From contig JAVEYW010000005.1 of assembly GCA_034003325.1 (NCBI GenBank), positions 156,508 through 220,507 of the forward strand: 64,000 nucleotides of DNA. The letters run 5' to 3'. Each line of letters opens with the position of its first letter. The stretch's first letter is position 1. The notes beneath the pieces were generated by a model, which searched no databases, was not told the origin of the DNA, and saw only the letters and a program-made list of their open reading frames with translations. Shown piece after piece: positions 8,582-38,434 of this stretch. This stretch comes from Desulfobacterales bacterium (GTDB lineage: Bacteria; Desulfobacterota; Desulfobacteria; Desulfobacterales; JAFDDL01). The translations under genes were made by a program, and so were the position numbers.

Positions 8582-8590
8582 AATAGAGGA

Positions 8591-8643: not shown

Positions 8644-8673
8644 TTCGGTAAAACAGACGCGGGAATAAAAGCC

Positions 8674-9957: not shown

Positions 9958-10097
9958 AAATACAAGTTGAAGGCGAGCGCCGCTAATAAAACAATCATTC
10001 GGCGCTAACATTGTTTGAATATTGAAATACGAATATGAACCGACGTTAGCGAACTCGTCGCGGAATATAAACCAAACGCTTAAGGAGGAAAAAAGAA

Positions 10098-11153: not shown

Positions 11154-11272
11154 GGGTGTCAAAGAACCACGGTGTATTTATTCTATCGATGGTTTAGGCA
11201 TTATGTTTGCTTTGCTTATCCGTCTATGAGGCCAGGATAAAAACGGCCGTAGCGATGAACAAAAACTGAATG

Positions 11273-11375
11273 CCCCAAAGGGGCTATGTAACATAGCCCA
11301 GGGTTGCGGCGCAGGCCGCTACCCTGGGTAAACCACGAACAAACCAATGAACCATCAACCCCAAAGGGGTTGTGT
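11273..11375. repeat. Cluster of GC-rich hairpins (REP-like) in the pstS-pstB spacer
   Basis: CCCCAAAGGGG; GGGCTATG-TAA-CATAGCCC; CCCAGGGT-TGCGGCGCAGGCCGCT-ACCCTGGG (with nested GCGGC/GCCGC); CAACCCC-AAA-GGGGTTG. Confidence 0.55.
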
Positions 11376-11474
11376 AAACTTGACGAAGGACCGGTGACAT
11401 TGTACCGTCAAGGGCACGGCAGTTCCGTCTTAAAATTTTTTTAATCAGCGGGTTAAATGGAATCGATTTTGGAA

Positions 11475-12350: not shown

Positions 12351-12572
12351 TTTGGTCGTACTAAACGCTGGAAGCTGGGCGGCTGGGCTGCTTGGCGGCA
12401 AACGGCCTTCTCCGATGATACACACTTTATCCCCCCAACACACGCCGCGTATTTTATCCAAAAACGCCGAAATAAATTGTTTGAAACGAGTTAGCCTTGC
12501 TTTTGATGGCAGGCGGTAGACCATCGGTTGTTCCGAATCGAACGTTGTTTTTTTAAAGCTTTCGTGTGGGCG

Positions 12573-12779
12573 CATTACCGGTTTGTTAACACCTCTGGAT
12601 CAACACGGTATAGGGGCGAACCTGTGCGCGCGCCTATTGCCTTTGTAGGGGCAGACCTGCGTGTCTGCCCCCGTGAATCATAGTGCACGCTCCCCGCCCA
12701 ACCCAGGGCGGACACACAGGTCCGCCCCTACGTTGACCGCGACGCCATGGATGTTGTTTTCATAAACAAACCGGTAATG
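12573..12779 (+). mobile_element. Family-2 MITE-like element, full copy with 15-bp terminal inverted repeats
   Basis: The left end CATTACCGGTTTGTT (12573-12587) is the exact reverse complement of the right end AACAAACCGGTAATG (12765-12779). The interior carries three GC-rich hairpins. No coding capacity. Confidence 0.7.
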
Positions 12780-13029
12780 GTCCTTTTCGTATTCGCGTTT
12801 GGGCACCACTGCAAAAAGAAGATCAAAATAAACCGGCTCATAGAGGACTAATCCTTCTTTAATCTTGCCAAAACAAAACTCGTCCAAAAGTAAAACCGTC
12901 TCTCTGATTTCCCATGGCGGTCATAGCTCATATAACCGGCTCAATCGATGGGGGCAGGGCAAAAAAAACAGGAAGAAGGTCATTATCTGGTTGGAAGTAT
13001 TTATCTATTTAATTTAAAGGAGGAGATTC

Positions 13030-22286: not shown

Positions 22287-23468
22287 TTACAACGGGTCGA
22301 TTGCGCCCGTTTTTTCCCATGGAAGCGCAATATCTTCCCGCCCGAAATGGCCGTAGGACGACAGCCTTTGAAAAAAGCCATCCGGATGCCGGGCAGGCAG
22401 ATGCCTGAGTTCAAATGCCTTCAGAATGCCGGCCGGTCTGAATTCAAAACGCTCCTGAACCAGATCGGTTAGATGTTGATCTGATTCTCGTCCCGTGCCG
22501 AAGGTGTTGACCATAATCGATACCGGTGCGGCCAGACCGTTAGCATAGCTCACCGCGACTTCGCAGGATGTCGCCAAACCGGCCGCCACCAGGTTCTTGG
22601 CCGCATACCGGGCCGCGTAGGCGCCGATCCTATCCACCCGCATCGGGTCTTTACCACTGAGGGCCTTACCGCTTTGGCGGGCGTACTCGCCGTAGGTGTC
22701 AACGGCGTTCTTCCGGCCGGTTAGCCCGGAATGATTTAAAGGACCACCCAAATAAGGGCCGTCGGGGTTGACATTCACCCATGTTTTCTCATCGGGTGTA
22801 ATCGCCATGGAATGAAACACCGGGGTGACGACCGCATCGAGCAGATCCTGTTTCAGAATTTCCGTATTCGGGTTGCTCAAGTGTCGCGTGTGAATTTCCA
22901 TCGTGATGCTGTGAATTCGATACGGTATTCGCTGCTTATATTCTACGCCCACTTGAACCTTGCTGTCCGGCATGAGGTAGGGAAGCACCCTTTCTTTTCT
23001 AACTGCGCTCAAGCGCTGCGTTAGCCGATTGGCCAGAAATATGGGCAGCGGCATAAGTACGGGACTTTCGTTTGTGGCATATCCGAATACAGTCACCTGG
23101 TTTCTGGCCGGGATGTTGTTTATTTCGGAATCCGAAAGGGTGCGTTCGTCAAAACGGCTGCTTTCATCGATCGCCGCGGCCTGCGGCGACGTGAGAATAC
23201 TGCAGTTTTTCGGGTTGAATTCCGGCTGATCATACCCGATCCGTTTAATGACCTTTCTGGCCACATGCGTCAAATCTACGGTAACGGTGGAAGCAAATCG
23301 CGCAGCGATAAAGACGATGGCGCCCGAAACGGCACACTCGCAGCGAACCTTTGAACAGGGTTCAAGCGCGAGAAAATGATCCACCACGGCATCGCTGACC
23401 TGATCGCATAGCTTGTCGGGGTGGCCTTCGGTTACGGATTCGGAGGTGAAAACAAAATTATCAATCAT
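22287..23468 (-). CDS. S-adenosylmethionine synthetase (MetK) family paralog with degenerate signature motifs
   Basis: Clear MetK fold (SESVTEGHPDKLCDQVSD, GLTGRK, SGKDPMRVDR, AAYAARYAAKNLVAAGLA, YGHFGRE). However, GAGDQG reads ARNQVT, GGPxGD reads GGPLNH, and GGGAFSGKD reads QSGKALSGKD. Starts 17 nt after the ATPase stop. Confidence 0.8.
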   Translation of the reverse strand: MIDNFVFTSESVTEGHPDKLCDQVSDAVVDHFLALEPCSKVRCECAVSGAIVFIAARFASTVTVDLTHVARKVIKRIGYDQPEFNPKNCSILTSPQAAAIDESSRFDERTLSDSEINNIPARNQVTVFGYATNESPVLMPLPIFLANRLTQRLSAVRKERVLPYLMPDSKVQVGVEYKQRIPYRIHSITMEIHTRHLSNPNTEILKQDLLDAVVTPVFHSMAITPDEKTWVNVNPDGPYLGGPLNHSGLTGRKNAVDTYGEYARQSGKALSGKDPMRVDRIGAYAARYAAKNLVAAGLATSCEVAVSYANGLAAPVSIMVNTFGTGRESDQHLTDLVQERFEFRPAGILKAFELRHLPARHPDGFFQRLSSYGHFGREDIALPWEKTGAIDPL

Positions 23469-23485: not shown

Positions 23486-26400
23486 TTAAACAGGTGTCTT
23501 TGCACCCTCTACTTCAGGTTTTCGAATATGGGATTTCGTTTTTGCCGCTTCATTGAACAACAGGGGTAAAACGGAGGTGCCGGCGATAACGGCCAGATCC
23601 ATCAGGGCGGGCGCCTTAAGGCCCAGCAACGAGCGAAGCGGCGGAAAGACCATTGTCAGCGCCTGCAAGGCCAGAGAGCCGCCGACCGCGATGCGCAGAT
23701 AGGGGTTGGCGGCCGTCTTCCTTCGGCCGAACAAGCTGGCATGCTCCGAGCGGCAACTGATCGCGTGCAGCAGTTGTGCGATGGTGAGGCTCTGAAAGGC
23801 CAACGAAGCAGCCCCGCTTCCGAGTCCGTATCGCGCAATCCCATAGCCGTATGCGGCCAGGGCCCCGCCGGTGATGGCCGCGGACTCGCGGGTCATTTGA
23901 AGGAAATCACCGGCTGAAAAGAGGGGCGCGGCCGTCTGGCGCGGGGGCCGGCTCATTACATCGTCTTCGGCCTCCTCCATCGCAAGGGCCAGCCCGGGAA
24001 AGATATCGGAAATAATGTTGATCCATAACAGTTGCATGACGTTTAACGGGAACCCGATGCCCAAGGCCATGGCGGCCGTCATCAGTATGATTTCGCTGAT
24101 GTTGGTGGACAGAAAAAAGTGAACCGATTTGCGAATATTGACATGAATGGTCCGGCCGTCTTTTAGCGCCAGCGCCAGTGTTTCCAGGTCATCTTCCTCC
24201 AGTACCATATCTGCGACATCCCTGGCCACATCGGTGCCTGTTTTGCCCATTGCAATGCCGATATCCGCGGCTTTGAGCGCGGGGCCATCGTTAATGCCGT
24301 CTCCGGTCATGGCCACAGTGACGCCGGCTGACTGCAGCGCTTGGACAATCTGCAACTTGTGCGCGGGACTGACCCTTGAATAAACGTGAGCCTTGGTGGC
24401 CAGCGCCTTGAGGGTTTCCGGATTTACAGCGGACAGATTCGATGAGTCGAGAATTTCGATAGGCCCGTCAGCGGCCAGATTCAATTGTTCAGCAATGGCA
24501 AAGGCGGTCGAGCTTTGATCGCCGGTGATCATGATGGTGTCGATACCGGCGCGATGGAATACCTGAATCAACGGCTGAACCCCCGGTCGAATCGGGTCCG
24601 CCATTCCCACCAATCCCAGCCAGACCAAATCTGAATCGTTCTCCACTCCCGTATCATCTGAAAACCGCTTATAAGCAAACCCAAGCACGCGCAGCGCCGC
24701 CGAAGCCATCTTTTCATTTTCGGATTCGATCGAGAGCCGCCTTGCGTCCGTCAACGGCTGTACAGCGCCGTTTACAGCCTCGCTGCTGCACATGGCCAAA
24801 ACTTCCGGCGGGCTTCCCTTGGTGTAACCTATCCGGTCATTTTCAGGCGTTCTGTGCAACGTGCTCATGAAAAGGCGGTTTTCGGATCGGTGATTGATCT
24901 CCAATCGGCGATAATCATGATTCATTCGGTGAATGTTAAAGCCGGCATCGATGGCCAGTTGCACCAGGGCTTTTTCAGTGGCGGAGCCGAACAACTCGAT
25001 TTGTCCCGATGCATTCGTCCCGTTGAGCTTAACCTCATGACATAGGGCGCAGGCTGTAATGAGTTGTAACAGGCCCTCATCGGTCGATGGATCGGCTGAT
25101 GAGGCATTGCCGGCGGTCAGACGACCGTTGGCGACGTTGTAGCAATGTTCCCCGGCGCAGATGCGCTGAACGGTCATGAGATTACGGGTAATGGTTCCCG
25201 TTTTGTCCATACATATGGCTTGAACGGCGCCCAATGTTTCCACCGCATGTAAATGCCGGATCAACACGCGATGCTTGCGCAGTTTTTTAATACCGAGAGC
25301 GAAATTGATGGTGGCGGCAGCCGGCAACCCCTCGGGAACGGCGGCCGCCGCCAGGGATATGGCCATTCGCAACATGGTTAGAAAACCATATCCCTGAAGC
25401 AAGCCGATGAGAAACACGACGCTGCAGATACCCCCGCACATGAGCACCAGATGGTCCCCCATTTGCCTCAATTGCCGTTCAATCGGCGTTTCCGGCGTTT
25501 CCGTCCGGTTGAGCATCATCTGAATATGACCGATTTGAGTGGCTTCGCCGGTTGCAACCACCACGGCGAGGCCTTGCCCGCCGGTGACCAGTGTTCCCAT
25601 ATAAGCCATGTTGGTACGGTCTGCCAGCGCGATATCGGCCGCTGTTAACCGTCCGGCATGCTTATCCACCGGCAGGCTTTCGCCGGTGAGCATGGATTCG
25701 TCGATACTTAAATGAGCCGCCGAAAGAATTCTAGCATCCGCGGCGACATAAGCGCCGGGTTTAAAGACGAGTATATCACCAGCCACGACGGATTGGACGG
25801 GAAGCGCCCTTGTTTTGCCATCGCGTATCACCTCGGCATGGGGTCGTACCAGGCTTTTGAGCGAATGGATGGTTTTTTCCGCCGCGCTTTCCGTAAAATA
25901 GCCGACGACCGCATTGGCGACCACCACCCCCATGATCACAGCCGCATCAAATAGCCCTCCGGTCAATACCGACACCCCGGCCGCAGCGCCCAAAAGATAA
26001 ACGGGCAGGCTGTTCATCTGATTCAAAAAGATTTGCCAGCCGGATCTCGGTTCGGCTTCAGGCAGCAGATTCGGGCCGTATTCTTTCAGAAGGGAATCGG
26101 CGAATCGATCGGACAATCCGAGTTTGTCGGAAGAGTGAAGCGTTTCAAGAATGGATCGGCTTTCCATTAAATGCCATTTTGGATTGTCACCTGTTTCCGG
26201 CGGTATCGGCAATGGGGTTGAATTTGTTTTTGGGCGCGCCTGTCTTTGTTTCCCTTTCGAGTTGTCACCCCTTCGAGGTCGAATCACTCGTTGCGAAACA
26301 ACGGAATTTTCCGAGTCCTGGATATATGTTTGAACGATCTGTTGAATGATTACCGCAACCGAATGGTGATTGTTATTCGAATTGTAAGACACCAGCAGGT

Positions 26401-26566
26401 TGCCGGTAATACAGCTTGCAGATGCCTTAATAATAGCGGAATCACGGCTTAGCTGATGCTCCAGGTATTGTTTGACGCCCGGTTCGTGTCGAAGACCCGG
26501 AATTTTAAAACGGGCGCGACCGCTCACCTTGGTATGGAGGGGTTGAATCGATGGCATGCTAAACAT
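23486..26566 (-). CDS. P-type (P2-like) cation-transporting ATPase with N-terminal HMA2-like domain
   Basis: TGES, PEGLP in TM4, CMDKTGTITRN, MITGD and GDGINDGPALKAADIGIAMG. Cation_ATPase N- and C-terminal regions. The first ~80 aa contain GRARFKIPGL...ASCITGNLLVSY. Confidence 0.9.
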   Translation of the reverse strand: MFSMPSIQPLHTKVSGRARFKIPGLRHEPGVKQYLEHQLSRDSAIIKASASCITGNLLVSYNSNNNHHSVAVIIQQIVQTYIQDSENSVVSQRVIRPRRGDNSKGKQRQARPKTNSTPLPIPPETGDNPKWHLMESRSILETLHSSDKLGLSDRFADSLLKEYGPNLLPEAEPRSGWQIFLNQMNSLPVYLLGAAAGVSVLTGGLFDAAVIMGVVVANAVVGYFTESAAEKTIHSLKSLVRPHAEVIRDGKTRALPVQSVVAGDILVFKPGAYVAADARILSAAHLSIDESMLTGESLPVDKHAGRLTAADIALADRTNMAYMGTLVTGGQGLAVVVATGEATQIGHIQMMLNRTETPETPIERQLRQMGDHLVLMCGGICSVVFLIGLLQGYGFLTMLRMAISLAAAAVPEGLPAAATINFALGIKKLRKHRVLIRHLHAVETLGAVQAICMDKTGTITRNLMTVQRICAGEHCYNVANGRLTAGNASSADPSTDEGLLQLITACALCHEVKLNGTNASGQIELFGSATEKALVQLAIDAGFNIHRMNHDYRRLEINHRSENRLFMSTLHRTPENDRIGYTKGSPPEVLAMCSSEAVNGAVQPLTDARRLSIESENEKMASAALRVLGFAYKRFSDDTGVENDSDLVWLGLVGMADPIRPGVQPLIQVFHRAGIDTIMITGDQSSTAFAIAEQLNLAADGPIEILDSSNLSAVNPETLKALATKAHVYSRVSPAHKLQIVQALQSAGVTVAMTGDGINDGPALKAADIGIAMGKTGTDVARDVADMVLEEDDLETLALALKDGRTIHVNIRKSVHFFLSTNISEIILMTAAMALGIGFPLNVMQLLWINIISDIFPGLALAMEEAEDDVMSRPPRQTAAPLFSAGDFLQMTRESAAITGGALAAYGYGIARYGLGSGAASLAFQSLTIAQLLHAISCRSEHASLFGRRKTAANPYLRIAVGGSLALQALTMVFPPLRSLLGLKAPALMDLAVIAGTSVLPLLFNEAAKTKSHIRKPEVEGAKTPV

Positions 26567-26824
26567 CCGACGGCATTAAATGAAGTTGGAATGATAGAAA
26601 AACCTCGAACTGGCGGCGATTGCGCAGCTCTAAAGGCGGCATCCTGCGGCAGCAACTTTTCGAAAAGAGTCGATGATCACATCGGGGTGGTTAGTCGAAA
26701 AAAAAATCGATTCAACAAAACAAATTAAGTTTTGGCGGCGCATGGGCGGAATGGGAACCGCATATGGAAACATGACATGATAAGCACGAGCGCAACTTTA
26801 ACCAAACACAACCCGCAGGGTTTG

Positions 26825-27325
26825 TTACCTGTCGATATCGATCGTCCGGTTTAATTCGTCGTAGAGCGACTTTGAAAAAAGTCCGAATGCGTACCAGAAC
26901 GCGGTGTACCAAGGTGGTCGTCTGAAATTACCAATGGCCAATTCCCACACGCCAAAAATCAGGAGAAGGAGAAACAGTGCACCAGGCAAATCCAGCGCAC
27001 CGTCCGACAGCACATTAATTCCGCAATTTACTTTTCTGATGGGCGCGGCGATGCGTTCGGCAAGCTTTTTGGGTGCCGGCGTGCCGGGGGTAATCAGAAA
27101 TAATTGGCGTTGGGATGCGATGGAACGCACCGCTTCAATGTTGACCGAGTCGTTCTCTATTACCAAGCAGCCCGTTAGCGCCGAAACCGTTATGGTGGAT
27201 GATGAAAGCGCTTCTTTAAGCCAATTTTCAACCTTTTCAAAATAGGCTGAATCCCCTCTTTTCGACATAACTTGAAGACGCAACCGTCTTCTCAGGCTGT
27301 GTTTAATCGTCGCTTCCGGTAACAT
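26825..27325 (-). CDS. HMA2-like domain protein with C-terminal membrane segment(s)
   Basis: RRRLRLQV...VSALTGCLVIEND pattern, then the hydrophobic stretch LPGALFLLLLIFGVWELAIG. Confidence 0.6.
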   Translation of the reverse strand: MLPEATIKHSLRRRLRLQVMSKRGDSAYFEKVENWLKEALSSSTITVSALTGCLVIENDSVNIEAVRSIASQRQLFLITPGTPAPKKLAERIAAPIRKVNCGINVLSDGALDLPGALFLLLLIFGVWELAIGNFRRPPWYTAFWYAFGLFSKSLYDELNRTIDIDR

Positions 27326-27767: not shown

Positions 27768-29657
27768 TCATGCGGCATTGGCGTTTGTATGTGTTCGATG
27801 GGTCGTTCCGGCAAGGTAATGGTTAAAATTGAAAAACATCGCTGCGCCATCTTTTCCCATATATCGCGCAAGGGTTTTTTGATCGTTTTTAAATAAATCC
27901 ACAATAATCAGCCCGTCCAATGCATGATTGAACTGTTTGTCCACATTAAAAGCGAGTATCTGGCCGCCGAGATTCAGGTAATGCTTCAGCAGAATCGGAA
28001 TGCCCTTGTTGTCGATTTCGATATCGGAGATAACGGCGTTGACCTCATGGATGTCACGGCAGAAACTTTCCATATCATCCGCTTGACAGCCTTTCACCCG
28101 AACCGGTTTCAAGGCCGGCGGTGATTTTGGCCTCACCATGGCCGCAATATCGCCTGCGTGATGATGCCAGAGCAGGGTTGTGGTTATTAACTGCCGTGAA
28201 AAGTCGCTGTAATCGCGGCTGATACTGACCGGTCCGAACAGCATGCGGTATTTCGGGTTTCTGGCGATGAAATGACCGATTCCTTTCCACAACAACAATA
28301 ACGGAGAATAGGATTTTTGATATTCGGGCCGGACAAAAGACCGGCCCAGCTCAAGCGCCGGTCCGATCTTTTCATAGAAAGCCGTGTGGCTATGAAATAA
28401 AGTCGCGGTATACAGGCCGCTTTTACCGTAACGATCGAGAATAATATCGGTACGGCCGAGACGGTAGGCGCCAACCACTTCACGGGTTTGATTATTCCAG
28501 ATGAAGATATGAAGGTAATGAGAATCAAAAGCGTCCATGTCGATGGCATTCCCGGAGCCCTCGCCTGCCAACCGGAAACTTTGTTCCCGAAGACGGCTGA
28601 TTTCAATCATCAGGCGGGGTATCTGCTCAAAGGAAGCCTGCCAAACCGTGAACGGACCGCTGGTGATAAGTTGCTGGCGTACCGGAAGCGTGTTTATCTC
28701 CGCCAGGAGAACTACCGGATCCATTGGCCCGGCGACCGGCCGGTTGCGGTGCGATGCCTGAGCGGGGTTTGTGTGAGGGGGAGCGGCGCGCCTTTTCCCG
28801 GCGTGACTGAGTAAATAGGTTCGCCATCTGAGGTAACCCATCAACCGGTCTTCCGCGCAGATTGCACGAAGATGCGGATAAGGAATCAACTTTCCGATTT
28901 TGATCGTTATTTTCCGGTTACGTTTATTTACTAATTCGCGTGGCAGCAGAGCGGTTCTCAGGGCCGGATGAATGAGGCCGAGAAGTTGAAATAATGTTCC
29001 GTTTGCGCCATCTATAAAAATCGGCAGAACCGGAGCTTGTGCTTTGTGAATGATCTTGCCGCTGCCCGTATTCCAGGCGGGGTCGGATATTTCGCGCCGG
29101 GAAAGGCTCAAATGGGAAACGGTTCCAGACGGAAATACCAGCAGGGCGCCCCCCTGTTGGACCCATTGAATCGCTTTTCGCATGGGGCCGATATTGGTAT
29201 GCATTGATTTTTCGGAGGGGTTCGGATCCACCGATAATAATAATTCCCGCATTTGGGGAATCCGATCGAGTATGAAATTCGCCATCACCTTGATATCCGG
29301 CCTGATGGAAAGCAACAGCGCCGTCAGCATAATGCCTTCTAATGCGCCGAAAGGGTGATTCGCCACAATCACCAGCGGGCCTTTTTTCGGGATAGCGGCC
29401 TTTTCCGTTTCATTCACGGAGAATTGAATATCGAGGGCGATTAAAATGCTCTCGAAGAATTCACGAGGGCCTTGGTTGGCATCCAGCGTTTGATACAGAT
29501 GCCGGCATTGCTGAATGGCTGTCAGCGATACAAACGGTTTTGCGAGAAGATTCAGGACGCGATGTTCGCGTTTGCCGTTTTCTGGCATAAACGACGTCAT
29601 TGAATGGGGGGATATCGTTTCCGGGAAGAGAAGCAATTGTTTTTCGGCGGATTCCAT
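27768..29657 (-). CDS. Bifunctional acyltransferase: N-terminal PlsC-type plus C-terminal OlsB-like GNAT (OlsF-like aminolipid synthase)
   Basis: The N-terminal half has VIVANHPFGALEG and FPSGTVS (lysophospholipid acyltransferase blocks). The C-terminal half has FDSHYLHIFIWNNQTREVVGAYRLG (N-acyl amino acid synthase / OlsB-like pattern). AGGAGA RBS. Confidence 0.7.
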   Translation of the reverse strand: MESAEKQLLLFPETISPHSMTSFMPENGKREHRVLNLLAKPFVSLTAIQQCRHLYQTLDANQGPREFFESILIALDIQFSVNETEKAAIPKKGPLVIVANHPFGALEGIMLTALLLSIRPDIKVMANFILDRIPQMRELLLSVDPNPSEKSMHTNIGPMRKAIQWVQQGGALLVFPSGTVSHLSLSRREISDPAWNTGSGKIIHKAQAPVLPIFIDGANGTLFQLLGLIHPALRTALLPRELVNKRNRKITIKIGKLIPYPHLRAICAEDRLMGYLRWRTYLLSHAGKRRAAPPHTNPAQASHRNRPVAGPMDPVVLLAEINTLPVRQQLITSGPFTVWQASFEQIPRLMIEISRLREQSFRLAGEGSGNAIDMDAFDSHYLHIFIWNNQTREVVGAYRLGRTDIILDRYGKSGLYTATLFHSHTAFYEKIGPALELGRSFVRPEYQKSYSPLLLLWKGIGHFIARNPKYRMLFGPVSISRDYSDFSRQLITTTLLWHHHAGDIAAMVRPKSPPALKPVRVKGCQADDMESFCRDIHEVNAVISDIEIDNKGIPILLKHYLNLGGQILAFNVDKQFNHALDGLIIVDLFKNDQKTLARYMGKDGAAMFFNFNHYLAGTTHRTHTNANAA

Positions 29658-30058
29658 TTTATTCTCCTATGATAAGGTTTGACGAACCGGCGGCACACCT
29701 TTCCGTTCGGGTTGCTTTTCGGGCAAGGGGCTTTTTTTTCCTTGAAACCGATATCGAATTGAATAGGCCCTGATCGTTATTATTTTACTAGCGTTTGATT
29801 AATATACCGCAAGATGGAGAACGGTCATAAAAACAGCCGGCAGCACCGATTCCGTTTTCCGGACAAGCATATATTGATTGAAATGAAGAGATGTTGATGC
29901 TACGATTCATCATCAAAACCATTCTTATCAGTGCCTTTATCAGAAATATACGGGCACGAACGCGCTTGTTCGTATCTATTCAATAGTGATTGTTGATGTC
30001 TGCGTCTTTTGACCTTCCAGCTTTCAGCTTACGGCGTTGCCGGGATCGGAGATGGGGT

Positions 30059-31390
30059 ATGGCAAATCGAAAGAAAAAAAATTTTGTCCTGGATACCAAT
30101 GTCATTTTACATGACAGCAGTTGCCTTTACCAATTTGATGAACACAATGTCGTGATTCCGATTTCCGTGATTGAGGAATTAGACGGGTTTAAACGGGGCA
30201 AAGAGACCATCCATTGCAACGCACGAGAATTTCTTCGCAATCTGGATATGCTATCCGGCGATAAGCTGTTCAACGGCGGTGTCAGCATCGGCTCGGGAAA
30301 AGGCAAAGTCAGCATTCATCTGGGGGGTGAGTTTCATGAAAAACTGAAGATGAACTTTTCAGTCGGAAAATCCGACCATCATATTTTGAACACGGCGTAT
30401 CGGATTGCCGAAAAAACGTCCTTTGAACAAACGGTTTTGGTGACAAAGGATGTCAACCTGAGAATGAAAGCAAAATCCATCGGTCTTAAGGCGGAAGATT
30501 ATACTACCGATCACGTTAAAAATATTTCCGAAATATACAAAGGTCGTCATGTCCTGGAAGATTTTCCCCTACCCGCCATCGAGCAACTCTACCAGCTTCC
30601 GTTTGAAACGCCATTGCCGGAAGCCCTATCCCGTGAGCCGCTGATGCCGAATGAATATCTGATTATGAAAAACGGCAGCGTGTCGGCCCTGGGCGTATTT
30701 GATCCGGCTATCGGGAAAATTCGTCGCATTGAAAGTAAACCCTGCTCGGGTGTCAAAGCGCGAAATGCGGAACAGGTTTTTGCATTGGACGCGCTCATGA
30801 ACCGCAACATTCCGCTGGTCACGCTTACCGGAAAAGCGGGAACCGGTAAAACGCTCGTGGCGCTGGCTGCCGCACTGGAAAGTAAAAAGTTTTACCGTCA
30901 GATTTTTCTGGCCCGGCCGGCGGTGCCCCTGAGCAACAAGGATATCGGCTTTCTGCCCGGTGATATCAAGAGCAAACTGGACCCTTATATGCAGCCGCTT
31001 TTTGATAACCTGTCCGTCATCGAAAACCGGCCTTGCGGGGACAGCAATCGGAAGATGCAGGTCAAGGAACTCCTGGATTCCGAAAAAATTATCATCACGC
31101 CGCTTTCTTACATTCGCGGCCGGAGCATCGTGAAAGTCTTTTTCATTGTGGATGAGGCGCAGAACCTGACCCCCCATGAGGTCAAAACGATCATTACCCG
31201 GGCCGGGGAGGGGACCAAGATTGTTTTGACGGGAGATATTTTCCAGATCGATCACCCGTATCTGGACAGTCAGTCAAACGGGCTGAGCTACCTCATCGAG
31301 CGAATGAAAGGACAAAAGCTCTATGCCCACGTCAATTTGGAAAAAGGGGAGCGCTCCGAGCTTTCCGAACTCGCCATTTCGTTGCTGTAG
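30059..31390 (+). CDS. PIN-PhoH fusion ATPase (PhoH2 / YlaK type)
   Basis: PIN (FVLDTNVILHD, VVIPISVIEELD), then a PhoH ATPase (GKAGTGKT Walker A, FFIVDEAQNLTPHEVKTIITRAGEGTKIVLTGD). Confidence 0.85.
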   Translation: MANRKKKNFVLDTNVILHDSSCLYQFDEHNVVIPISVIEELDGFKRGKETIHCNAREFLRNLDMLSGDKLFNGGVSIGSGKGKVSIHLGGEFHEKLKMNFSVGKSDHHILNTAYRIAEKTSFEQTVLVTKDVNLRMKAKSIGLKAEDYTTDHVKNISEIYKGRHVLEDFPLPAIEQLYQLPFETPLPEALSREPLMPNEYLIMKNGSVSALGVFDPAIGKIRRIESKPCSGVKARNAEQVFALDALMNRNIPLVTLTGKAGTGKTLVALAAALESKKFYRQIFLARPAVPLSNKDIGFLPGDIKSKLDPYMQPLFDNLSVIENRPCGDSNRKMQVKELLDSEKIIITPLSYIRGRSIVKVFFIVDEAQNLTPHEVKTIITRAGEGTKIVLTGDIFQIDHPYLDSQSNGLSYLIERMKGQKLYAHVNLEKGERSELSELAISLL

Positions 31391-31426
31391 ATTCGACAAG
31401 TAAAATATTCAAGAAACCGAATGACT

Positions 31427-31543
31427 TTCAGACCCTTTACCAGAAACATGCACGCTTTTGCGTGTATATTCGCCGAAGGTGAAAAATGGCTTTTATGCAT
31501 CCGGGCATCCCAGCATCCCAGCATCCGGCTTTGCCGGATTAGG
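31427..31543 (+). repeat. Family-1 structured intergenic element, copy B
   Basis: Same consensus with four 8-mer units (GCATCCGG GCATCCCA GCATCCCA GCATCCGG). Starts 37 nt after the PhoH2 stop. Confidence 0.85.
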
Positions 31544-31713
31544 TGCTTATCACCGATAAGGTGCGGCTCGGTAACATTTTATGGGCCGGCTAACAATGAC
31601 CTAACAATTGAAGGGTAGACTGAAACAGAATCGATCGCATGACGGGAGAATGTGGCGAGTGCCCCATAACGTGATCGTCACCTGTTTTTTATGGAAAGGC
31701 GTGTGAGGCCAAT

Positions 31714-32064
31714 ATGTTGTCCTTAAATTATGATATCGGTGAGTTTATCAGAGCGCTGGGAAGCAGGGATCGTCATGAAGCGATCTGGCTGGCCCATCAA
31801 GAGGCCTTGTCGGTGGAGCGATTGCTTCTAAAACCGATGTTGACGATCAATCTCAAAAAACAACAAATGGAAAAATACTCGATGGATCTTAAAAATCTAA
31901 TTGCCTCCATCCGATACCTTTCCGTTCCTAAAAAAGTGTATGGCGCCGGATGGTTTGAGCTTTTGAATCGGCAGTTTCAACGTGGTGAGTTGCCTTCTGA
32001 TCACTGGCGGCGCGAATCTTATACGCAAAAAAAACGGCCTTACCCAATTTTAACCGATTTTTAA
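31714..32064 (+). CDS. Hypothetical protein (116 aa)
   Basis: ORF with plausible composition and a weak RBS. No motif recognised. Confidence 0.4.
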   Translation: MLSLNYDIGEFIRALGSRDRHEAIWLAHQEALSVERLLLKPMLTINLKKQQMEKYSMDLKNLIASIRYLSVPKKVYGAGWFELLNRQFQRGELPSDHWRRESYTQKKRPYPILTDF

Positions 32065-32146
32065 TCCGCGCCCAATCGCAATCTCCCAATATACATTCGG
32101 TCGTATTTAGGCCGATATCGTTGATCCATAACAGGGGAGAATGCGT

Positions 32147-34567
32147 ATGGGGTATAGCCGTGCCGGGATTTTCCAACTTCCCGGGCCGAATCGGTCCGGG
32201 CGACTAAGCACCCATGATCCGGAAAGAATTCGGCATCTCTTGTCCGTGCCGGCGCCGGGTCATTCATTGTTTGCAATGCACCTGCCTTTTGCCGGTAACG
32301 ATACCACCGCCGGGATTGAAAACGAGATTCAAACCGCGGTTATCGGCACGGCCGATTCAGCGGACTTGCCACTGGCCATCAAAGCCTCCAGTTACTATAA
32401 GAATCTTCTTCGGCGAACCGCATCGGGCGATTGCTCCAAAAAGTTGATTGAAGGCCTTACCGATTATCTGGAAGACGATCGGGTGAGCGTTTGGGAAAAT
32501 AGTTGGGTCCGATTCGCGCTGAACCTGCTGAACGATTATGCGCGTCGAGTGTTAAACCGCGATCTGGCGGCGGATAAAACCGTTACCGACGGCCCGCCGC
32601 GGGGGGATTGCCACCGATTTTTGATGGATCGGGGTGAGCCGGGAGCGTTGCGAATACCGGTAAGTTATCTACTGAAATTGGCCCTGGCCGATGCCATTGG
32701 TGGTGAGAAGACCGACGGGATGGTTCGAGCGTCCGGGGAGCTGGCCATGGAGCATTTCTCCAATGACAACACGAGCCCGGAAACATGCTCGTTTTATCCG
32801 GTGCCGACGCGTTATGGGGCCGGATTGGGCATGGGTGTCGTGAAGGAAACGGCCAAGCGCTTTTTGCTCTGCCAGCTTTTGACCGAGTATGCCAATCAAA
32901 AATTCCGGTTGACGCAGACCGGACAGCGAACCGTGGTTTATTTTGCGCCCAACCCGCCGTACCGTCAGCGATTATTGAACAATTTGATACCGGACGCTTT
33001 TTATCGGGAGCTATTCATGAGTCCCTGCTTGTCCGGGTGGCGTTGCGGCGAGGACAAATACCGTTATATGGTCAAATGCCATCAGGTGCTTTCCCGAAGC
33101 CAGCTAAACGCCCTTCATAAGTTAAAAGATGCCAATATCATCGTGAATAACCTTGTGGTGTTGCCCAACACCTCCAATGTGAGTCTGGCCAATAACGGCA
33201 CGCATATCAGCCTGGGCAGCCGGAAACTGACCCGGCTGCTGAAGGACCCCGGTTCGGGGTTCGGTCCCGCGGACGAAAAGTATCTGGGGGATCTCGTCAT
33301 TAAGATCATGGAGCATTTTTTGCCGCTTTTTGTCGGCACCTACAGCGCGGCGCCGTATCGGTTCGATTTTCAGGATTTTCACCCCGAAAAGATGCTCGGG
33401 TTTTTGCCCCACGAGCTGGATTATACGCATTTGCGAATGCTCTGGCGCCGGTGGAAGAAAAAGGCTTCGCTGAAACTTTTCGGTCATCCGGTCACGCCCT
33501 TTGGACCGGAGTGGCTGGATCGGTTGCTGAGTCGTGTTTGCGGGCTCAAAGGCGATACGGTATGCGATTTGAGGTTGCTCGATTATTTCGTGTCCGTCCT
33601 GAGCACCGATGAGAATCCGGCCCTGAACGGGGAATTGAACAATGAAGTGGGGCTCAAACAGGATTTGGCGAATATGGGGGTTTTTGACACCGAGATGCCG
33701 TTATACCTGCTGTATCGGCTGCGGCAATGCCGGCAAATGGGGTTTTCCGGTTTTGAGGGCCGTTACTACAGTTTGTTTGAAAGCCTGACCGGGGACATGA
33801 GTCGCGCAGTGGAGCTTCAGACCTTGTTGACGGCGCTGGCGTATAAATACATACTGGCCGGAACGGTTTCACATGAAGATATTCCCGACAGCCCCACCAT
33901 TGAAAGCGAACGGCGGCAATTTTTTTTCGGTGCGGCCATCGGTATTCCCACTTTTTATGTCCACAAGAAGACGCAGAACCGGTTTCTGCTCAAAATTCTT
34001 CGCCATGCCCGCCATACACGCGCAAGCCGCCGCTATCCGGACTATGTGCGCGTGCATCATTCGGCATACCAAATGGCGTTGATTCACATGCTGAAAGAAG
34101 ATGCTTCGGATTTGCTCGAGCTATTCCATGCGGCGCCTCTGGTTGAAGACCTTGAAAATCGATTGCTGCACGCAGACGAATGTTCCGCGGCCGGGAAAAT
34201 GACGAGGCGCATTCTTTCGGACTTCGGGGTATCCGATCCGCTGAAGGTCGATGCCCTGGCGTTTAACACGCGGTCCGAAACCATCTTCCGTGAGCAATTG
34301 CTTCGAAAGCATGTGAATGAGGCCTTTGATTTGCTGCTGGATGATGTCCGGGTGCTTGACTCGTTTGATTCATGGCGCCACGGCGCATACAACAAATCAT
34401 TACTGAGCATACTGGCAGCCGGAAATGCCGGCGATTTTGTTCAAGCCGGCCGCAGGGATTTCCACGCCGGAGAGATTCAACTTGAAACCGTTCAAAAGCT
34501 GATTCACTTGTGTTTGCTGACCATCGATCATGACCGCCGGCAAAGTGAGAAAGTGATTAACCTATGA
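32147..34567 (+). CDS. Large conserved-looking protein of unknown function (806 aa)
   Basis: GGGGAG 7 nt upstream of ATG 32147. Soluble, no TM segments, no motif I can assign. The stop overlaps the next start (ATGA). Confidence 0.7.
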   Translation: MGYSRAGIFQLPGPNRSGRLSTHDPERIRHLLSVPAPGHSLFAMHLPFAGNDTTAGIENEIQTAVIGTADSADLPLAIKASSYYKNLLRRTASGDCSKKLIEGLTDYLEDDRVSVWENSWVRFALNLLNDYARRVLNRDLAADKTVTDGPPRGDCHRFLMDRGEPGALRIPVSYLLKLALADAIGGEKTDGMVRASGELAMEHFSNDNTSPETCSFYPVPTRYGAGLGMGVVKETAKRFLLCQLLTEYANQKFRLTQTGQRTVVYFAPNPPYRQRLLNNLIPDAFYRELFMSPCLSGWRCGEDKYRYMVKCHQVLSRSQLNALHKLKDANIIVNNLVVLPNTSNVSLANNGTHISLGSRKLTRLLKDPGSGFGPADEKYLGDLVIKIMEHFLPLFVGTYSAAPYRFDFQDFHPEKMLGFLPHELDYTHLRMLWRRWKKKASLKLFGHPVTPFGPEWLDRLLSRVCGLKGDTVCDLRLLDYFVSVLSTDENPALNGELNNEVGLKQDLANMGVFDTEMPLYLLYRLRQCRQMGFSGFEGRYYSLFESLTGDMSRAVELQTLLTALAYKYILAGTVSHEDIPDSPTIESERRQFFFGAAIGIPTFYVHKKTQNRFLLKILRHARHTRASRRYPDYVRVHHSAYQMALIHMLKEDASDLLELFHAAPLVEDLENRLLHADECSAAGKMTRRILSDFGVSDPLKVDALAFNTRSETIFREQLLRKHVNEAFDLLLDDVRVLDSFDSWRHGAYNKSLLSILAAGNAGDFVQAGRRDFHAGEIQLETVQKLIHLCLLTIDHDRRQSEKVINL

Positions 34568-35562
34568 GACACCAGTACATTGCCCGCGATTCCGCGGCCG
34601 TAGTGACCGAAAGACTGATTGCCGATCAATGGGTGGGGGTGTTGTATGCTTCGGTCAGGGAACAGAGCCCGTTTCTATTCAAGTTGCTGACATCGGCAAG
34701 AATGTCGGCGCTGCTCGGATGCCTCCAATTTGATTCCGTTCATACCTCCGCGCGAAAAATGATTCGCCGGCTTGGCGTCGATCCGCTGGAGTGTCTTGCC
34801 CCCATGAATCAGCTGAATTCGCCCCGCAAGGTATTTGAACGCAAAATTTGCTACTGGCGATGCCGCCCCTTGCCGCTGCAGGAATCCGACATTGTCGCGC
34901 CGGCGGATTCCAGAATGCTGGTGGGATCATTTCGCAGCGAGTCCCAAGTCTTTGTCAAAGAAAAATTCTTTGATTTTGAACAACTGCTGGGAGCGAACAA
35001 AGTATCGTGGCTTTCCGCCTTTCATCACGGCGGCTATGCCGTCTTTCGGTTAACGCCTGAAAAGTATCATTATTCCCATACGCCGGTCTCAGGACGCGTC
35101 ATTGATTTTTATGACATCAGCGGCGCCTATCATTCATGCAATCCAAGCGCCGTGGTAGAGATGGCGCAGCCCTATTCAAAGAACAAACGGGTCGTGACCA
35201 TCATCGACACGGATGTGGCCGGCGGTACCGGGGTCGGGCTGGTGGCCATGATTGAAGTGGTGGCGTTGATGATCGGCGATATTCTTCAGTGCTATAGCGA
35301 AGCACGGTATGATGAGCCCGTGGGCATCACCCCGGGAATGTTTTTGAAAAAAGGGCAACCCAAGGGGCTCTTTCGGCCGGGCAGCTCGGTGGTTATTTTG
35401 ATATTTCAGGAACATCGGATTGAGTTTTGTGAAGATATTCTTCTGAACTTGCATCGAACCGATGTCGTCAGCCGGTTTTCGGCCGGTTTCGGCCAAACCC
35501 TCGTGGAAACGGAAGTCAATGTCCGGTCCAAAATCGCCTATGGGAGCGCTGCGCCATGTTAA
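34564..35562 (+). CDS. psd: Phosphatidylserine decarboxylase family proenzyme
   Basis: PSD pattern: FRLTPEKYHYSHTPVSG..SCNPSAV..KNKRVV, and a GSS self-cleavage motif in LFRPGSSVVILIF close to the C-terminus. Confidence 0.75.
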   Translation: MRHQYIARDSAAVVTERLIADQWVGVLYASVREQSPFLFKLLTSARMSALLGCLQFDSVHTSARKMIRRLGVDPLECLAPMNQLNSPRKVFERKICYWRCRPLPLQESDIVAPADSRMLVGSFRSESQVFVKEKFFDFEQLLGANKVSWLSAFHHGGYAVFRLTPEKYHYSHTPVSGRVIDFYDISGAYHSCNPSAVVEMAQPYSKNKRVVTIIDTDVAGGTGVGLVAMIEVVALMIGDILQCYSEARYDEPVGITPGMFLKKGQPKGLFRPGSSVVILIFQEHRIEFCEDILLNLHRTDVVSRFSAGFGQTLVETEVNVRSKIAYGSAAPC

Positions 35563-36608
35563 ACGAAATCGTCGTCATCACCCTGATCCTTTTACTGTCA
35601 GCGTTGTTGTGGTGGAGCTTTACCTTTTTGTCTCGTGAGGGGTGGCAATTTATCGCGTCGGTGCCGGTTAAAAAGCGGGGCGAAGGCCAATGGCAAGGGC
35701 TGAATTTCACCTATTATGGCTTTTTCAATGCGATGGCCGTGACGCTGGCTTCGGCAATGGGGATCATTCTGCTGGCCGCCTGCGGGATACCCACCCTTAC
35801 CGTCATCGGCGTCATCATCAGTATTCTGGCGCTTTGCGTGCCTGCCGCCCGCCTGGTTGCCGGGTGGGTGGAAAAAAAACGGTATACTTTCAGTATCGGC
35901 GGGGCTTCATTTGTGGGGTTGCTGGGAGCCCCCTGGATCATTTTGCTTTTTCGAGCGGGTAGTAAAGGACCGGAAGGCTCGGCGCTGCAACCGATCGTGG
36001 TGCTTTCCGCCATTGTCGTGGCCTATGCCCTCGGTGAAGGCGTGGGCCGGCTGGCGTGTATCAGTTTCGGCTGTTGCTACGGCAAACCGATCGACACCCT
36101 TCATCCGGCCCTACGCCGTCTGTTTTATCGAATCGGGGTTTCTTTTTACTGCCCCACCCGAAAGGCGGTTTACGCCGATCACCTGGCGGGGGTTCGTCTC
36201 GTTCCGATTCAGGCGATAACCTCGGTCATCAACTGCCTGGCGGCCGTTGCGGGGATGTATTTGTTTTTGACCGGCAGGTTCGCAGCCGCCTTTCTGGTGT
36301 CGATGATGCTGACGCAACTTTGGCGGGTTGCTTCTGAATTTTTGCGTGCGGATTATCGCGGAAATGGCCGGTTGTCCGCCTATCAATGGATGGCCCTGAG
36401 CGCCATTCCCTATTCGCTGTTGATCAGCCGCTTATTTACCATGACCGGAAGCCGTGTTCCCGATGTGGCCGCCGGGTTTCAGGCGCTCTGGCATCCCGCA
36501 GTGTTGATCAATTTACAGCTCTTATGGATCTTGGTGTTTATTTATTTTGGAAAAAGCCGCGTGACCGAATCTTCACTAAGCTTTCACGTTGTGCGGGATC
36601 GTGTTTGA
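35556..36608 (+). CDS. Polytopic membrane protein of the Lgt (prolipoprotein diacylglyceryl transferase) family
   Basis: About 8 TM segments. GVGRLACISFGCCYGKP resembles the GR(I/L)GCF..GCCYG block of Lgt-family proteins. The start overlaps the psd-like stop by 7 nt. Confidence 0.6.
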   Translation: MLNEIVVITLILLLSALLWWSFTFLSREGWQFIASVPVKKRGEGQWQGLNFTYYGFFNAMAVTLASAMGIILLAACGIPTLTVIGVIISILALCVPAARLVAGWVEKKRYTFSIGGASFVGLLGAPWIILLFRAGSKGPEGSALQPIVVLSAIVVAYALGEGVGRLACISFGCCYGKPIDTLHPALRRLFYRIGVSFYCPTRKAVYADHLAGVRLVPIQAITSVINCLAAVAGMYLFLTGRFAAAFLVSMMLTQLWRVASEFLRADYRGNGRLSAYQWMALSAIPYSLLISRLFTMTGSRVPDVAAGFQALWHPAVLINLQLLWILVFIYFGKSRVTESSLSFHVVRDRV

Positions 36609-36880
36609 ACGCAGCGATCGCAGGCGTTCAAAAGGGTTTTCAGGCGTGAATGTAAGCCGGGAAATATGGCGAGTCGTCGCAGTATTGCAGCGCGAAGGCT
36701 GGGGGATTTGCAGCAAAGGATCATGGCGCCCGTCAACATCATCAATAGACCGCCCGGCAAAGGGGTGATAAACAGAATCAGGCCAAAGCCGGTCAGACCC
36801 CAGCCGGCAAGAAGTCCGATAAATTTAGGAACAGATTGTAGCCAGCAACGCTGTGTGTCGGTTTGCTTTTTCATTTTCAA
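36584..36880 (-). CDS. Small two-TM membrane protein (98 aa)
   Basis: Two hydrophobic helices (IGLLAGWGLTGFGLILFITPLPGGLLMMLTGAMIL), PGPGW-like. The 3' end overlaps the convergent Lgt-like gene by 25 nt. Confidence 0.45.
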   Translation of the reverse strand: MKMKKQTDTQRCWLQSVPKFIGLLAGWGLTGFGLILFITPLPGGLLMMLTGAMILCCKSPSLRAAILRRLAIFPGLHSRLKTLLNACDRCVQTRSRTT

Positions 36881-37256
36881 ATTGTCTTGTCCTTCTCTAA
36901 AACCATTTTTTTTCCCACGCGGTTAGGCGTGGGAACGGGGACAAGGTCAGCGCGTCTCTTTTGCTACTTCACTTCTGCTGGTGGATCGGCCGTCATCCGG
37001 AAGGTTAATCGTTCGGGTAATTGGCGACGGACGGTTCAGGCATGCGACAGTCCACCTCCGTGCCGAAAAAAAGCCCCACCGATTTGATAAATACGCTCAG
37101 AACAAACCGGCCCGGACCGAAACACTCATCAATCGAGGCATCATATTTATGTTCCGGCTCCCATAATGCTTCTGCACGTCAGTTTGACCTGATGCTCGAC
37201 TTCCAGAACCAGAAATCGAAGATTTCCCCAAATCGTTTCTGAATGGTTCAATCGGT

Positions 37257-37523
37257 TCATGTTCCTATGGAAAGATTGGCGGTATCGCTCTCTTTGGAGA
37301 GGTGCTTCCATGAGATCTTCATTTCAAGCCGGCTCTTGTCTTTTTTTTTCTTGGCGCTGATCTTGAATTTGAGCAGCATTTGAGGACTCAGTTCCAGCGT
37401 TTCATTATCCGAGCTAAGAATGATTTGACCGGACTCAAATCCCTGGTTCAACGAGTCCAAAAAACTGCAAATGGTGCGGACATCCTGTATGGATTCATAA
37501 TCGAAACTGCCGTCTTCCGTCAT
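37257..37523 (-). CDS. Amphi-Trp domain protein (88 aa)
   Basis: GGGAGG RBS. FDYESIQDVRTICSFLDSLNQGFESGQIILSS..LELSP..LKFKISAKKKKDKSRLEMKISWKH matches my recollection of the amphi-Trp small-protein family. Confidence 0.6.
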   Translation of the reverse strand: MTEDGSFDYESIQDVRTICSFLDSLNQGFESGQIILSSDNETLELSPQMLLKFKISAKKKKDKSRLEMKISWKHLSKESDTANLSIGT

Positions 37524-37572
37524 GGTTGCCTCCCGTCCGTGTGGGGTTTACAATGATTCGGCCAGGCACCCT

Positions 37573-37895
37573 TCAGCCGTCCAGGCGCTGCCGGTATTCG
37601 GTAATGACGCGGGGGCGATCCATTCCCGCGCGGATAAGGCCTTTTCGAATGGTCACCTCTTCCCAAACCGGTTGGCACCCGATTTCCCGGTTGGCTTTCA
37701 TCGGATCACGCAAGACCGGTTCGCGCACTTTTTCGCCCATGTGCGTGTCGTCCCCCATGAAAATGAGCAGGTTGCGGGTTGATGCCCCGGCCCGGCAATT
37801 TTTACGGTGAATGACGTCGGGGTCACTTCCTTTGGAATTTTGCTCGGAATCACGGCGGCCCATTCACGAAGGGGGTTTGTGGTGATCACTTTCAT
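37573..37895 (-). pseudogene. Gene interrupted by a frameshift at an A5 run (or a programmed -1 shift)
   Basis: ATG 37895 lies 7 nt after the upstream stop. Frame 1 (MKVITTNPLREWAAVIPSKIPKEVTPTSFTVK) runs into GTAAAAATT (rc of 37797-37805). One extra A, or a -1 slip, joins it to the frame encoding NCRAGASTRNLLIFMGDDTHMGEKVREPVL...VITEYRQRLDG, ending at 37573. Confidence 0.45.
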
Positions 37896-37902
37896 GGGCG
37901 TG

Positions 37903-38163
37903 TCATTCCCCGGACCTTTCGGGAGAATCATGAGGCGGCGCCTTGTCGGGCATTTGGGCATGTTCCGTCTTGATTCTCACGGTGAAATTCTTGCCTTTGG
38001 GCTTAATTTTCAATTCGAGCAGTTCCAGCCGCTCAAACGGGTTGGCAATATCAGCGCCGGAAAGGGTGTGGCGGGTGGTGAACTCGTTGCCCAAGCGGCA
38101 CAGAAAGTCCGCCAATGCCTGCGTATTCAGTTCTCTTTTTAGTTTATTTTTTATTTTTTCCAT
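37903..38163 (-). CDS. Amphi-Trp-like small protein, paralog lacking the Trp (86 aa)
   Basis: LADFLCRLGNEF..LELLELKIKPKGKNFTVRIKTEH parallels the 37257-37523 product. Confidence 0.45.
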   Translation of the reverse strand: MEKIKNKLKRELNTQALADFLCRLGNEFTTRHTLSGADIANPFERLELLELKIKPKGKNFTVRIKTEHAQMPDKAPPHDSPERSGE

Positions 38164-38434
38164 AATAGTGATGCCGTTTTGAACAGGGTTGAATGAATTT
38201 TCTCGTTTTATCTCAGGTGAATGTGAAGATAGCGTTAGCGGTTGATTAGAAATTGAGTGCCGGTTTCAAGCCGTTTTCAGTTTGGTCAAGGTCAATGCGA
38301 GTGAAATAAAAGTTGCGTTGCGCCTCAAAAATATCGGATTGAATCAGAATAGGGAGCGCGACGAGCCGAGTTCATGGGGTAACCGGGATGGAAAGGAAGT
38401 CACCAACAGCCGATGCCGGGTAACACAAGTGAAC

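Follow-up and report, generated by a model that had tools for sequence, protein, structure and literature searches.

The stretch of DNA analysed here, 64,000 nucleotides from a Desulfobacterales bacterium (assembly GCA_034003325.1, contig JAVEYW010000005.1, positions 156,508 to 220,507; hereafter the window), contains three tightly linked genes, which we refer to as the triad and examine as a candidate pathway for a phosphorus-free membrane lipid. They encode a large protein of 806 aa, a protein resembling phosphatidylserine decarboxylase (PSD), and a membrane protein resembling the prolipoprotein diacylglyceryl transferase Lgt:

32147-34567, + strand: gene 1, 806 aa (808 aa from an alternative ATG at 32141)
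34564-35562, + strand: gene 2, psd-like, 332 aa
35556-36608, + strand: gene 3, lgt-like, 350 aa

As read from the sequence, genes 1 and 2 overlap in an ATGA at 34564-34567, and genes 2 and 3 share 7 nt (ATG...TAA, 35556-35562). The three co-directional open reading frames (ORFs) and their two overlaps are therefore as the original prediction described them. Stoichiometric co-expression, which it read from the overlapping codons, is not a conserved feature: stop/start coupling varies between loci. A Shine-Dalgarno-like GGGGAG lies 7 nt 5′ of the ATG at 32147 and favours the 806-aa start of gene 1; the JGI gene call is a shorter form of 763 aa. G+C content is unremarkable, and a scan for promoters and terminators returned nothing significant. 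The flanks (31391-32146 and 36609-38281) hold short ORFs only, without family matches, for example 31714-32064 (116 aa), 36666-36926 and 37807-38142. No convincing gene was seen in the 1.7 kb 3′ of the lgt-like gene, where AT skew is strongly negative.

The Triad Is Conserved as a Unit

Relatives of gene 1 were surveyed using one genome per species, and 82 loci were examined, with neighbours counted within 7 kb of the triad; individual loci are cited by our own labels. Relatives occur in at least 354 species, in Desulfobacterales, Geobacteraceae, Syntrophales, Syntrophobacterales, Nitrospirota and Nitrospinota, and further in NC10, an anammox metagenome-assembled genome (MAG), Acidobacteriota (Blastocatellia) and SAR324. 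Completeness was counted in those related loci whose downstream sequence extends for 2.4 kb or more (n = 67). All three genes occur together in 67/67 of these; 65 share the same gene order, 62 have the genes directly next to one another, and in 5 loci other genes interrupt the triad. Conservation of the three genes as a unit, which the original prediction had left to be checked, thus extends across phyla.

Spacing is looser in some lineages, as in Desulfonema, where gaps of up to 160-620 nt separate triad genes. Two isolates, Desulfonema ishimotonii and Desulfococcus multivorans, carry the triad with differing flanks, and no fourth gene is universal to triad loci. The triad is also present in Desulfatibacillum alkenivorans DSM 16219 (L018), which we take to be the type strain PF2803T. 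The sole locus without a psd-like gene after the large gene is that of a Desulfobacterales MAG (L004, 3667-4743 of a 4743-bp contig); here a short lgt-like fragment (3741-3866) directly follows the large gene, and a deletion variant or an assembly artefact is possible.

Gene 1 Resembles Glutamate-Cysteine Ligases in Predicted Structure

The original prediction called the 806-aa protein unrecognizable. By sequence this stands: the protein has no match in Pfam, NCBIfam or PDB sequence searches, and both phmmer against the PDB and a PDB profile search with the gene 1 family were negative. Pfam searches with 64 family members (54 plus 10 divergent representatives) gave zero matches at E values up to 10; the member families sought were Glu_cys_ligase, GCS2, Gln-synt_C and Pup_ligase. 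More than 2,900 homologues were found at about 55% identity, every one annotated "hypothetical". An exhaustive search of representatives yielded a family of 698 at 50% clustering, with no bridging relatives outside it among the 150 best matches listed.

By predicted structure and motifs the protein looks like a ligase of the glutamine synthetase/glutamate-cysteine ligase (GS/GCL) superfamily. An AlphaFold2 model of the full-length protein, built from 54 sequences, had a pLDDT (predicted local distance difference test) of 80.7 and a pTM (predicted template modelling score) of 0.86. In a Foldseek search of the PDB, this model matched GshF first (3ln6, E 9e-3, probability 1.0; 3ln7, probability 0.96), followed by E. 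coli gamma-glutamylcysteine synthetase (2d32 and 1v4g; TM score 0.42-0.45 on the target) and then, further down, GS type III, Dop, PafA, yeast GCL and Francisella GshA. The superfamily accounts for 10 rows (nine entries) of the top 50 matches, and TM scores normalized to the query are 0.11-0.31 for these rows versus at most 0.11 for all others.

Candidate ligands of gene 1 were paired with residues of E. coli GshA by inspection:

G-I-E58-N-E60 (E58, E60) in gene 1; G-L-E27-R-E29 in GshA
W-E117 in gene 1; E67 in GshA
N-G-T-H353-I-S-L-G-S in gene 1; S-G-V-H150-Y-N-F-S in GshA
F-E537-G-R539 in gene 1; I-E328-V-R330 in GshA

These residues sit on predicted strands, in the same order and with similar local motifs as the metal and ATP ligands of GshA, a comparison made by eye and unscored. 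E58, E60, E117, H353, E537 and R539 are invariant in 54 close homologues. Among 41 more divergent members, H353, E537 and R539 still show no variation; conservation is at least 90% for E58 and E60 and less than 90% for E117. The protein is soluble and carries an additional helical domain, about 170 aa long, at its C-terminus. Taken with the model, these features make it probable that gene 1 encodes an ATP-dependent carboxylate-amine ligase of GS/GCL fold with a large extra helical domain.

Gene 2 Is a PSD Relative, Not a PSD Equivalog

Gene 2 matches Pfam PS_Dcarbxylase (PF02666) at 6.8e-36, with 124.2 bits against a threshold of 22. The best-scoring NCBIfam PSD equivalog model gives it 134.5 bits, far short of the cut-off of 371, and gene 2 is thus not an equivalog. 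D115, H169/H172 and the self-cleavage site G273-S274-S275 show conservation of 95% or more across 62 homologues, and the protein can be aligned to the beta chain of E. coli PSD through PAD, YHRVH and the C-terminal Gly. The Pfam match and the conserved catalytic residues bear out the PSD pattern, including the GSS self-processing site, that had been read from the sequence. Judging from these residues, gene 2 very probably encodes an active pyruvoyl decarboxylase, yet it is no ordinary PSD orthologue. No pssA-type family was found among the recurrent neighbours in the 82 loci, the only part of these genomes that was searched.

Gene 3 Retains the PG-Binding Network of Lgt and Has a Predicted Inverted Core

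Membership of gene 3 in the Lgt family, as first proposed, is upheld by a Pfam LGT match (PF01790; 1.2e-09, 38.4 bits against a gathering cut-off of 24.9) and by retention of the residues that bind phosphatidylglycerol (PG) and catalyse transfer. The protein is not an Lgt equivalog (NCBIfam, 42.5 bits against a cut-off of 334). In an alignment of 27 sequences (gene 3, E. coli Lgt and 25 homologues), Y54, R165, G176, R257, E261 and R264 of gene 3 correspond to Y26, R143, G154, R239, E243 and R246 of E. coli Lgt and are invariant; the equivalent of G142 is also kept. In E. coli Lgt, Y26, G142-R143, G154, R239, E243 and R246 form the PG-binding and catalytic network (PMC4728403).

The signature of gene 3 reads GRLACISFGCCYG versus G142-RLGNFINGELW-G154 in Lgt. 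N146 and E151 of Lgt are both Cys in the gene 3 family (at least 90% conserved; GCCYG motif), and E151A and E151Q mutants of E. coli Lgt are inactive (PMC4728403). Invariant-position cysteines of the family are the two that replace N146 and E151, plus C94. The H103GGL position of Lgt is occupied by F-V-G-L-L in gene 3, with no His there in aligned homologues. H103GGL is essential in E. coli Lgt, where it is the proposed binder of the lipobox peptide, and H103 mutants are inactive (PMC4728403).

Hydropathy predicts about nine transmembrane (TM) helices in gene 3, an extra one at each end compared with the seven of Lgt. The loop equivalent to the Lgt head carries a mean of 7.9 K/R versus 3.6 D/E in the gene 3 family, and the counterpart of the cytoplasmic loop of E. 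coli Lgt (4 K/R) is nearly uncharged, with 0.7 K/R. Because of these loop charges, read by the positive-inside rule, and the extra TM helix at each end, the catalytic core of gene 3 is predicted to be inverted and to face the cytoplasm.

A Candidate Pathway for BACys

Desulfatibacillum alkenivorans PF2803T makes a lipid named "N-butyramide cysteine glycerol" (BACys) under phosphate limitation (Ding et al. 2024, PMC11181052). At 0.0005-0.0015 mM phosphate only, BACys and glucuronosyl (GlcA) glycerols almost fully replace phosphatidylethanolamine (PE), PG and cardiolipin (PMC11181052). The headgroup fragment of BACys, m/z 205.064 (C7H13O3N2S+), was read as cysteine together with a C4 amide unit, carried on glycerol, and its diacyl, acyl/ether and diether cores (DAG, AEG and DEG) are the same as those of PG and PE (PMC11181052). 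That report proposes no genes for BACys, and our literature searches for BACys genes, for the headgroup formula and for an Lgt-like lipid remodelling enzyme found only Ding et al. 2024.

Removal of CO2 from gamma-Glu-Cys (C8H14N2O5S) leaves C7H14N2O3S, 4-aminobutanoyl-cysteine, which is the composition "butyramide + cysteine". The BACys fragment would then be the neutral thiol headgroup minus H−, as cleavage of an S-glyceryl bond would leave it. The characterised ligases known from the GS/GCL superfamily make gamma-glutamyl amides, canonically gamma-Glu-Cys, and PSD enzymes remove the carboxyl from a headgroup that is a free alpha-amino acid. Lgt attaches the diacylglyceryl group of PG to Cys as an S-linked thioether, with release of glycerol-1-phosphate (PMC4728403). 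The default chemistries of the three families thus sum exactly to the BACys headgroup.

In the pathway that we propose, the 806-aa ligase would form, at the expense of ATP, an amide between the gamma-carboxyl of glutamate and the cysteine amino group. The Lgt-like enzyme, facing the cytoplasm, would then move the diradylglyceryl group of PG to the cysteine thiol, giving a thioether and glycerol phosphate, with recovery of the phosphorus. Finally, the PSD-like enzyme would strip the alpha-carboxyl and convert the gamma-glutamyl to a 4-aminobutanoyl group, leaving the headgroup C7H14N2O3S. The predicted inverted topology of gene 3 would place its active site on the side where glutamate, cysteine and the soluble ligase are found, and BACys would share the cores of PG because the diradylglyceryl group is transferred from PG. 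A thioether lipid derived from gamma-Glu-Cys is a likelier product than the simple decarboxylated diacylglyceryl-amino acid first suggested.

From the genes and the published lipid we infer the substrates, the order of steps, the regulation, the topology of gene 3 and the link to BACys. We put at about 0.6 the probability that the triad is a phosphate-starvation pathway turning PG-type phospholipids into a phosphorus-free, zwitterionic thioether aminolipid of BACys type. The more specific proposal, that it makes BACys by means of an Lgt acting on a small-molecule thiol through an inverted active site, a PSD acting on a non-phospholipid and a new family of gamma-glutamyl ligases, seems to us somewhat better than an even bet.

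Genomic Neighbourhood and Phosphate

Genes for phosphate uptake and for other phosphorus-free lipids lie 5′ of the triad in the window:

6109-6765, − strand: phoU (Pfam PhoU)
7154-12350, + strand: pstC-pstA-pstS-pstB (Pfam DUF3708/BPD_transp_1, DUF3333/BPD_transp_1, PBP_like_2, ABC_tran)
14755-17202, − strand: 814-aa protein with a weak PHP-like N-terminus and a GT4 glycosyltransferase (Pfam domains)
17325-18641, − strand: radical-SAM protein, 437 aa (Pfam domains)
27768-29657, − strand: OlsF-type bifunctional ornithine-lipid synthase (Pfam Acyltransferase and Acetyltransf_5)
29990-31390, + strand: PIN-PhoH-like protein (Pfam PhoH 7e-49, and PIN_4), immediately 5′ of the triad

The pst genes, for high-affinity phosphate uptake, stand in an unusual order, and phoU is divergent from them. 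A putative porin (Porin_5, 13030-14295) follows pst and could be phosphate-selective. Homologues of the PIN-PhoH protein adjoin the triad in 7 other loci (L006, L012, L024, L025, L071 and L072 among them), and pst, phoU, phoB, phoR or phoH occurs within 7 kb of the triad in 23/82 loci. Adjacent two-component systems score best as PhoB and PnpS/PhoR, some above curated cut-offs. At the Citrifermentans bremense R1 locus (L017, 6968-16376), the large gene, a histidine kinase, a PhoB-like regulator, an unresolved ORF region, PhoU and the psd-like and lgt-like genes are co-directional and stand in this order, which splits the triad; two long same-strand ORFs overlap at 11808-13934 of this locus, where a frameshift or spurious high-GC ORFs are possible. 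The genomic neighbourhood of the triad thus points strongly to phosphate starvation.

The OlsF-type protein (NCBIfam OlsF, 5.1e-119, below the cut-off of 620) combines O-acyltransferase and GNAT N-acyltransferase domains, a second route to a phosphorus-free lipid 2.5 kb from the triad. The N-terminal ~430 aa of the 814-aa GT4 protein have a sub-threshold PHP match (E 0.014), and the best NCBIfam match of a homologue of this fusion is N-acetylglucosaminyl-PG synthase (4.5e-35). A GT4 gene lies within 7 kb of the triad in 19/82 loci (including L006, L009 and L016). At L062 it stands upstream of the large gene, and in the Trichlorobacter/Geobacter loci L028, L035 and L047 the GT4 fusion, together with a 732-aa protein without a family match, lies between the psd-like and lgt-like genes. 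By analogy with Agt, the GT4 fusion is a candidate synthase for the co-induced GlcA glycerolipids, and with the radical-SAM gene it would form a glycolipid module.

Other neighbours recur in particular lineages. A small DUF2062 membrane protein is encoded directly 3′ of the lgt-like gene in 11 Geobacter/Desulfuromonadales-type loci (at about 11400-12000; L027, L037, L043, L045, L050, L061, L069, L070, L072 and L082 are named examples), and a DUF3108 protein is often found upstream in loci of this type (9 loci); both may be lineage-specific accessory components. The window also holds, at 23486-27325 on the − strand, a P-type cation ATPase with an N-terminal HMA_2 domain beside a separate 166-aa HMA_2 protein, and downstream of these genes an S-adenosylmethionine synthetase (22287-23468).

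Weighing the Interpretation

Conservation of the triad, its Pho neighbourhoods and its presence in a BACys producer give circumstantial support to the original prediction of an operon for a non-canonical, phosphorus-free headgroup lipid. Several points weigh against our interpretation. The structure of BACys is tentative, being drawn from tandem mass spectrometry (MS2) only (PMC11181052), and the lipid is known from a single organism; the operon is tied to the lipid through its genes and that one report. For gene 1, the ligase assignment comes from one AlphaFold2 model with borderline Foldseek statistics (best E 9e-3, TM score about 0.3). A truncated model of the catalytic region was worse (pLDDT 69) and gave no signal in Foldseek, and hhalign comparison of two gene 1 family alignments with E. 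coli GshA found nothing; with the profile-profile results negative and the truncated model uninformative, fold and motifs are what this assignment has to stand on. In gene 3, two residues important in E. coli Lgt, N146 and E151, are Cys, and its chemistry could differ. Nor do regulatory sites stand out: a scan of the window for the Pho box TGTHAY-N5-TGTHAY was at chance level, with no clear Pho box upstream, and a search for k-mers 5′ of the gene in the related loci found TGTNAC only weakly enriched, with three tandem pairs at 11-bp spacing.

The same enzymes could act in another order. If the Lgt-like protein lipidated cysteine, the PSD-like protein converted the product to a cysteamine lipid and the ligase then added gamma-glutamate, the resulting gamma-glutamyl-cysteamine lipid would be an isomer, C7H14N2O3S, with a headgroup formula identical to that reported for BACys. 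S-diacylglyceryl-Cys, a mimic of phosphatidylserine, would be nearer to the natural PSD substrate than a gamma-glutamyl terminus, and GS-like enzymes that gamma-glutamylate free amines (polyamines, ethanolamine) are known, which counts for this order. The soluble ligase would, however, have to act on a membrane-bound amine, and the MS2 reading of Ding et al., intact cysteine plus butyramide, suits 4-aminobutanoyl-Cys better than Glu-cysteamine (PMC11181052). We consider the cysteamine order rather unlikely. It is also conceivable, and in our view unlikely, that the product is a different membrane compound, thiol-linked or derived from an amino acid (an envelope modification, for example, or a small peptide or thiol anchored to lipid and used in redox or metal handling), and that the match to the BACys formula is coincidental. 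The substrates of the triad are deduced, the family occurs in non-sulfate-reducers (Nitrospirota, NC10, anammox, Acidobacteriota) without reported BACys, and Pho-type neighbours are seen in only 23/82 loci. Yet the default substrates of the families predict the exact BACys formula, the BACys producer strain carries the triad, and the association with Pho genes and genes for phosphorus-free lipids recurs in many arrangements.

Public annotations give genes 2 and 3 the names of housekeeping enzymes, and both Pfam domains score above gathering thresholds, as would be expected if a housekeeping PSD and a housekeeping Lgt simply lay beside an unrelated hypothetical protein. We reject this explanation as most improbable. 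The two proteins score 134 versus 371 bits and 42 versus 334 bits, below every NCBIfam equivalog cut-off. Gene 3 lacks H103 and the HGGL motif, has N146 and E151 replaced and has an inverted predicted topology; no pssA family recurs among the neighbours in the 82 loci; and the three genes travel together across phyla in obligate linkage, unlike unrelated housekeeping genes. The housekeeping names now attached to genes 2 and 3 are probably misleading.

Phospholipid substitution under phosphate limitation, and BACys itself, were already known; the enzyme logic proposed here is without precedent in the literature searched. If the assignment of the triad to a BACys-type pathway is correct, BACys, an orphan lipid described in 2024 as the main phospholipid substitute of a sulfate reducer short of phosphate, gains a three-gene candidate. 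Gene 3 would be the first Lgt-family enzyme to lipidate a small-molecule thiol, turning PG directly into a phosphorus-free bulk membrane lipid and recovering its phosphorus as glycerol phosphate set free in one transferase step. Gene 2 would be a PSD paralogue acting on a non-phospholipid substrate, and gene 1 would reveal a sequence-dark family of gamma-glutamyl ligases; the repertoires of Lgt and PSD would widen, and a function could be given to more than 2,900 "hypothetical" proteins of 800 aa. Substitution of sulfur and nitrogen for phosphorus in lipids would be widespread in anoxic environments (at least 354 species), and the triad genes could serve as a survey marker for anoxic sediments, aquifers and wastewater communities.

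Comparison with Known Systems

In its inferred role, the provision of phosphorus-free lipids at low phosphate, the triad resembles the Pho-regulated lipid replacement systems, namely PlcP with Agt, OlsF or OlsBA, BtaAB for diacylglyceryl-trimethylhomoserine (DGTS), and sulfoquinovosyldiacylglycerol (SQDG), and, as in those systems, triad loci associate with pst and pho genes, OlsF and GT4. Desulfovibrio alaskensis requires both agt and olsF when phosphate is limiting (PMC5193443). The triad has an entirely different set of enzymes, in which a GS/GCL-like ligase and a pyruvoyl decarboxylase would assemble the headgroup. The proposed transfer is directly from PG to a thiol, without phospholipase C or free diacylglycerol, and unlike the O-glycosidic, ether and amide linkages of known replacement lipids, the proposed product contains a C-S thioether.

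Each protein also departs from its nearest characterised relative. Gene 1 has its best structural matches in GshA (1V4G/2D32) and GshF (3LN6); its motifs G-I-E-x-E, E, H and E-x-R follow, by inspection, the order of the metal ligands of E. coli GshA, and the reaction proposed for it, formation of the gamma-Glu-Cys amide bond, is the canonical one of the GS/GCL family. Unlike GshA, it is about 300 aa larger, with long insertions and the C-terminal helical domain, has no detectable sequence or profile similarity, and would be dedicated to a lipid operon. Its family occurs in lineages that, to our knowledge, are not known for glutathione. Gene 2 has the Asp-His-Ser triad and the Gly-Ser self-cleavage site of PSD (PF02666; E. 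coli 6L06/7CNW), which would generate a pyruvoyl group; unlike PSD, it is paired, in the loci examined, with the ligase and the lgt-like gene rather than with pssA, and its proposed substrate is phosphorus-free, with a gamma-glutamyl or cysteinyl end. Gene 3 belongs to the same Pfam family as Lgt (5AZB/5AZC, PMC4728403) and likely shares its thioether chemistry and PG donor. Lgt has 7 TM helices, its N-terminus outside, and an acidic head and active site in the periplasm, whereas the head loop of gene 3 is positive and its core is predicted to be inverted; the acceptor, a lipobox protein for Lgt, is proposed to be a small molecule. With BACys (PMC11181052), which is made only when phosphate is limiting, the lipid predicted for the triad shares both the formula and the diradylglycerol cores of PG.

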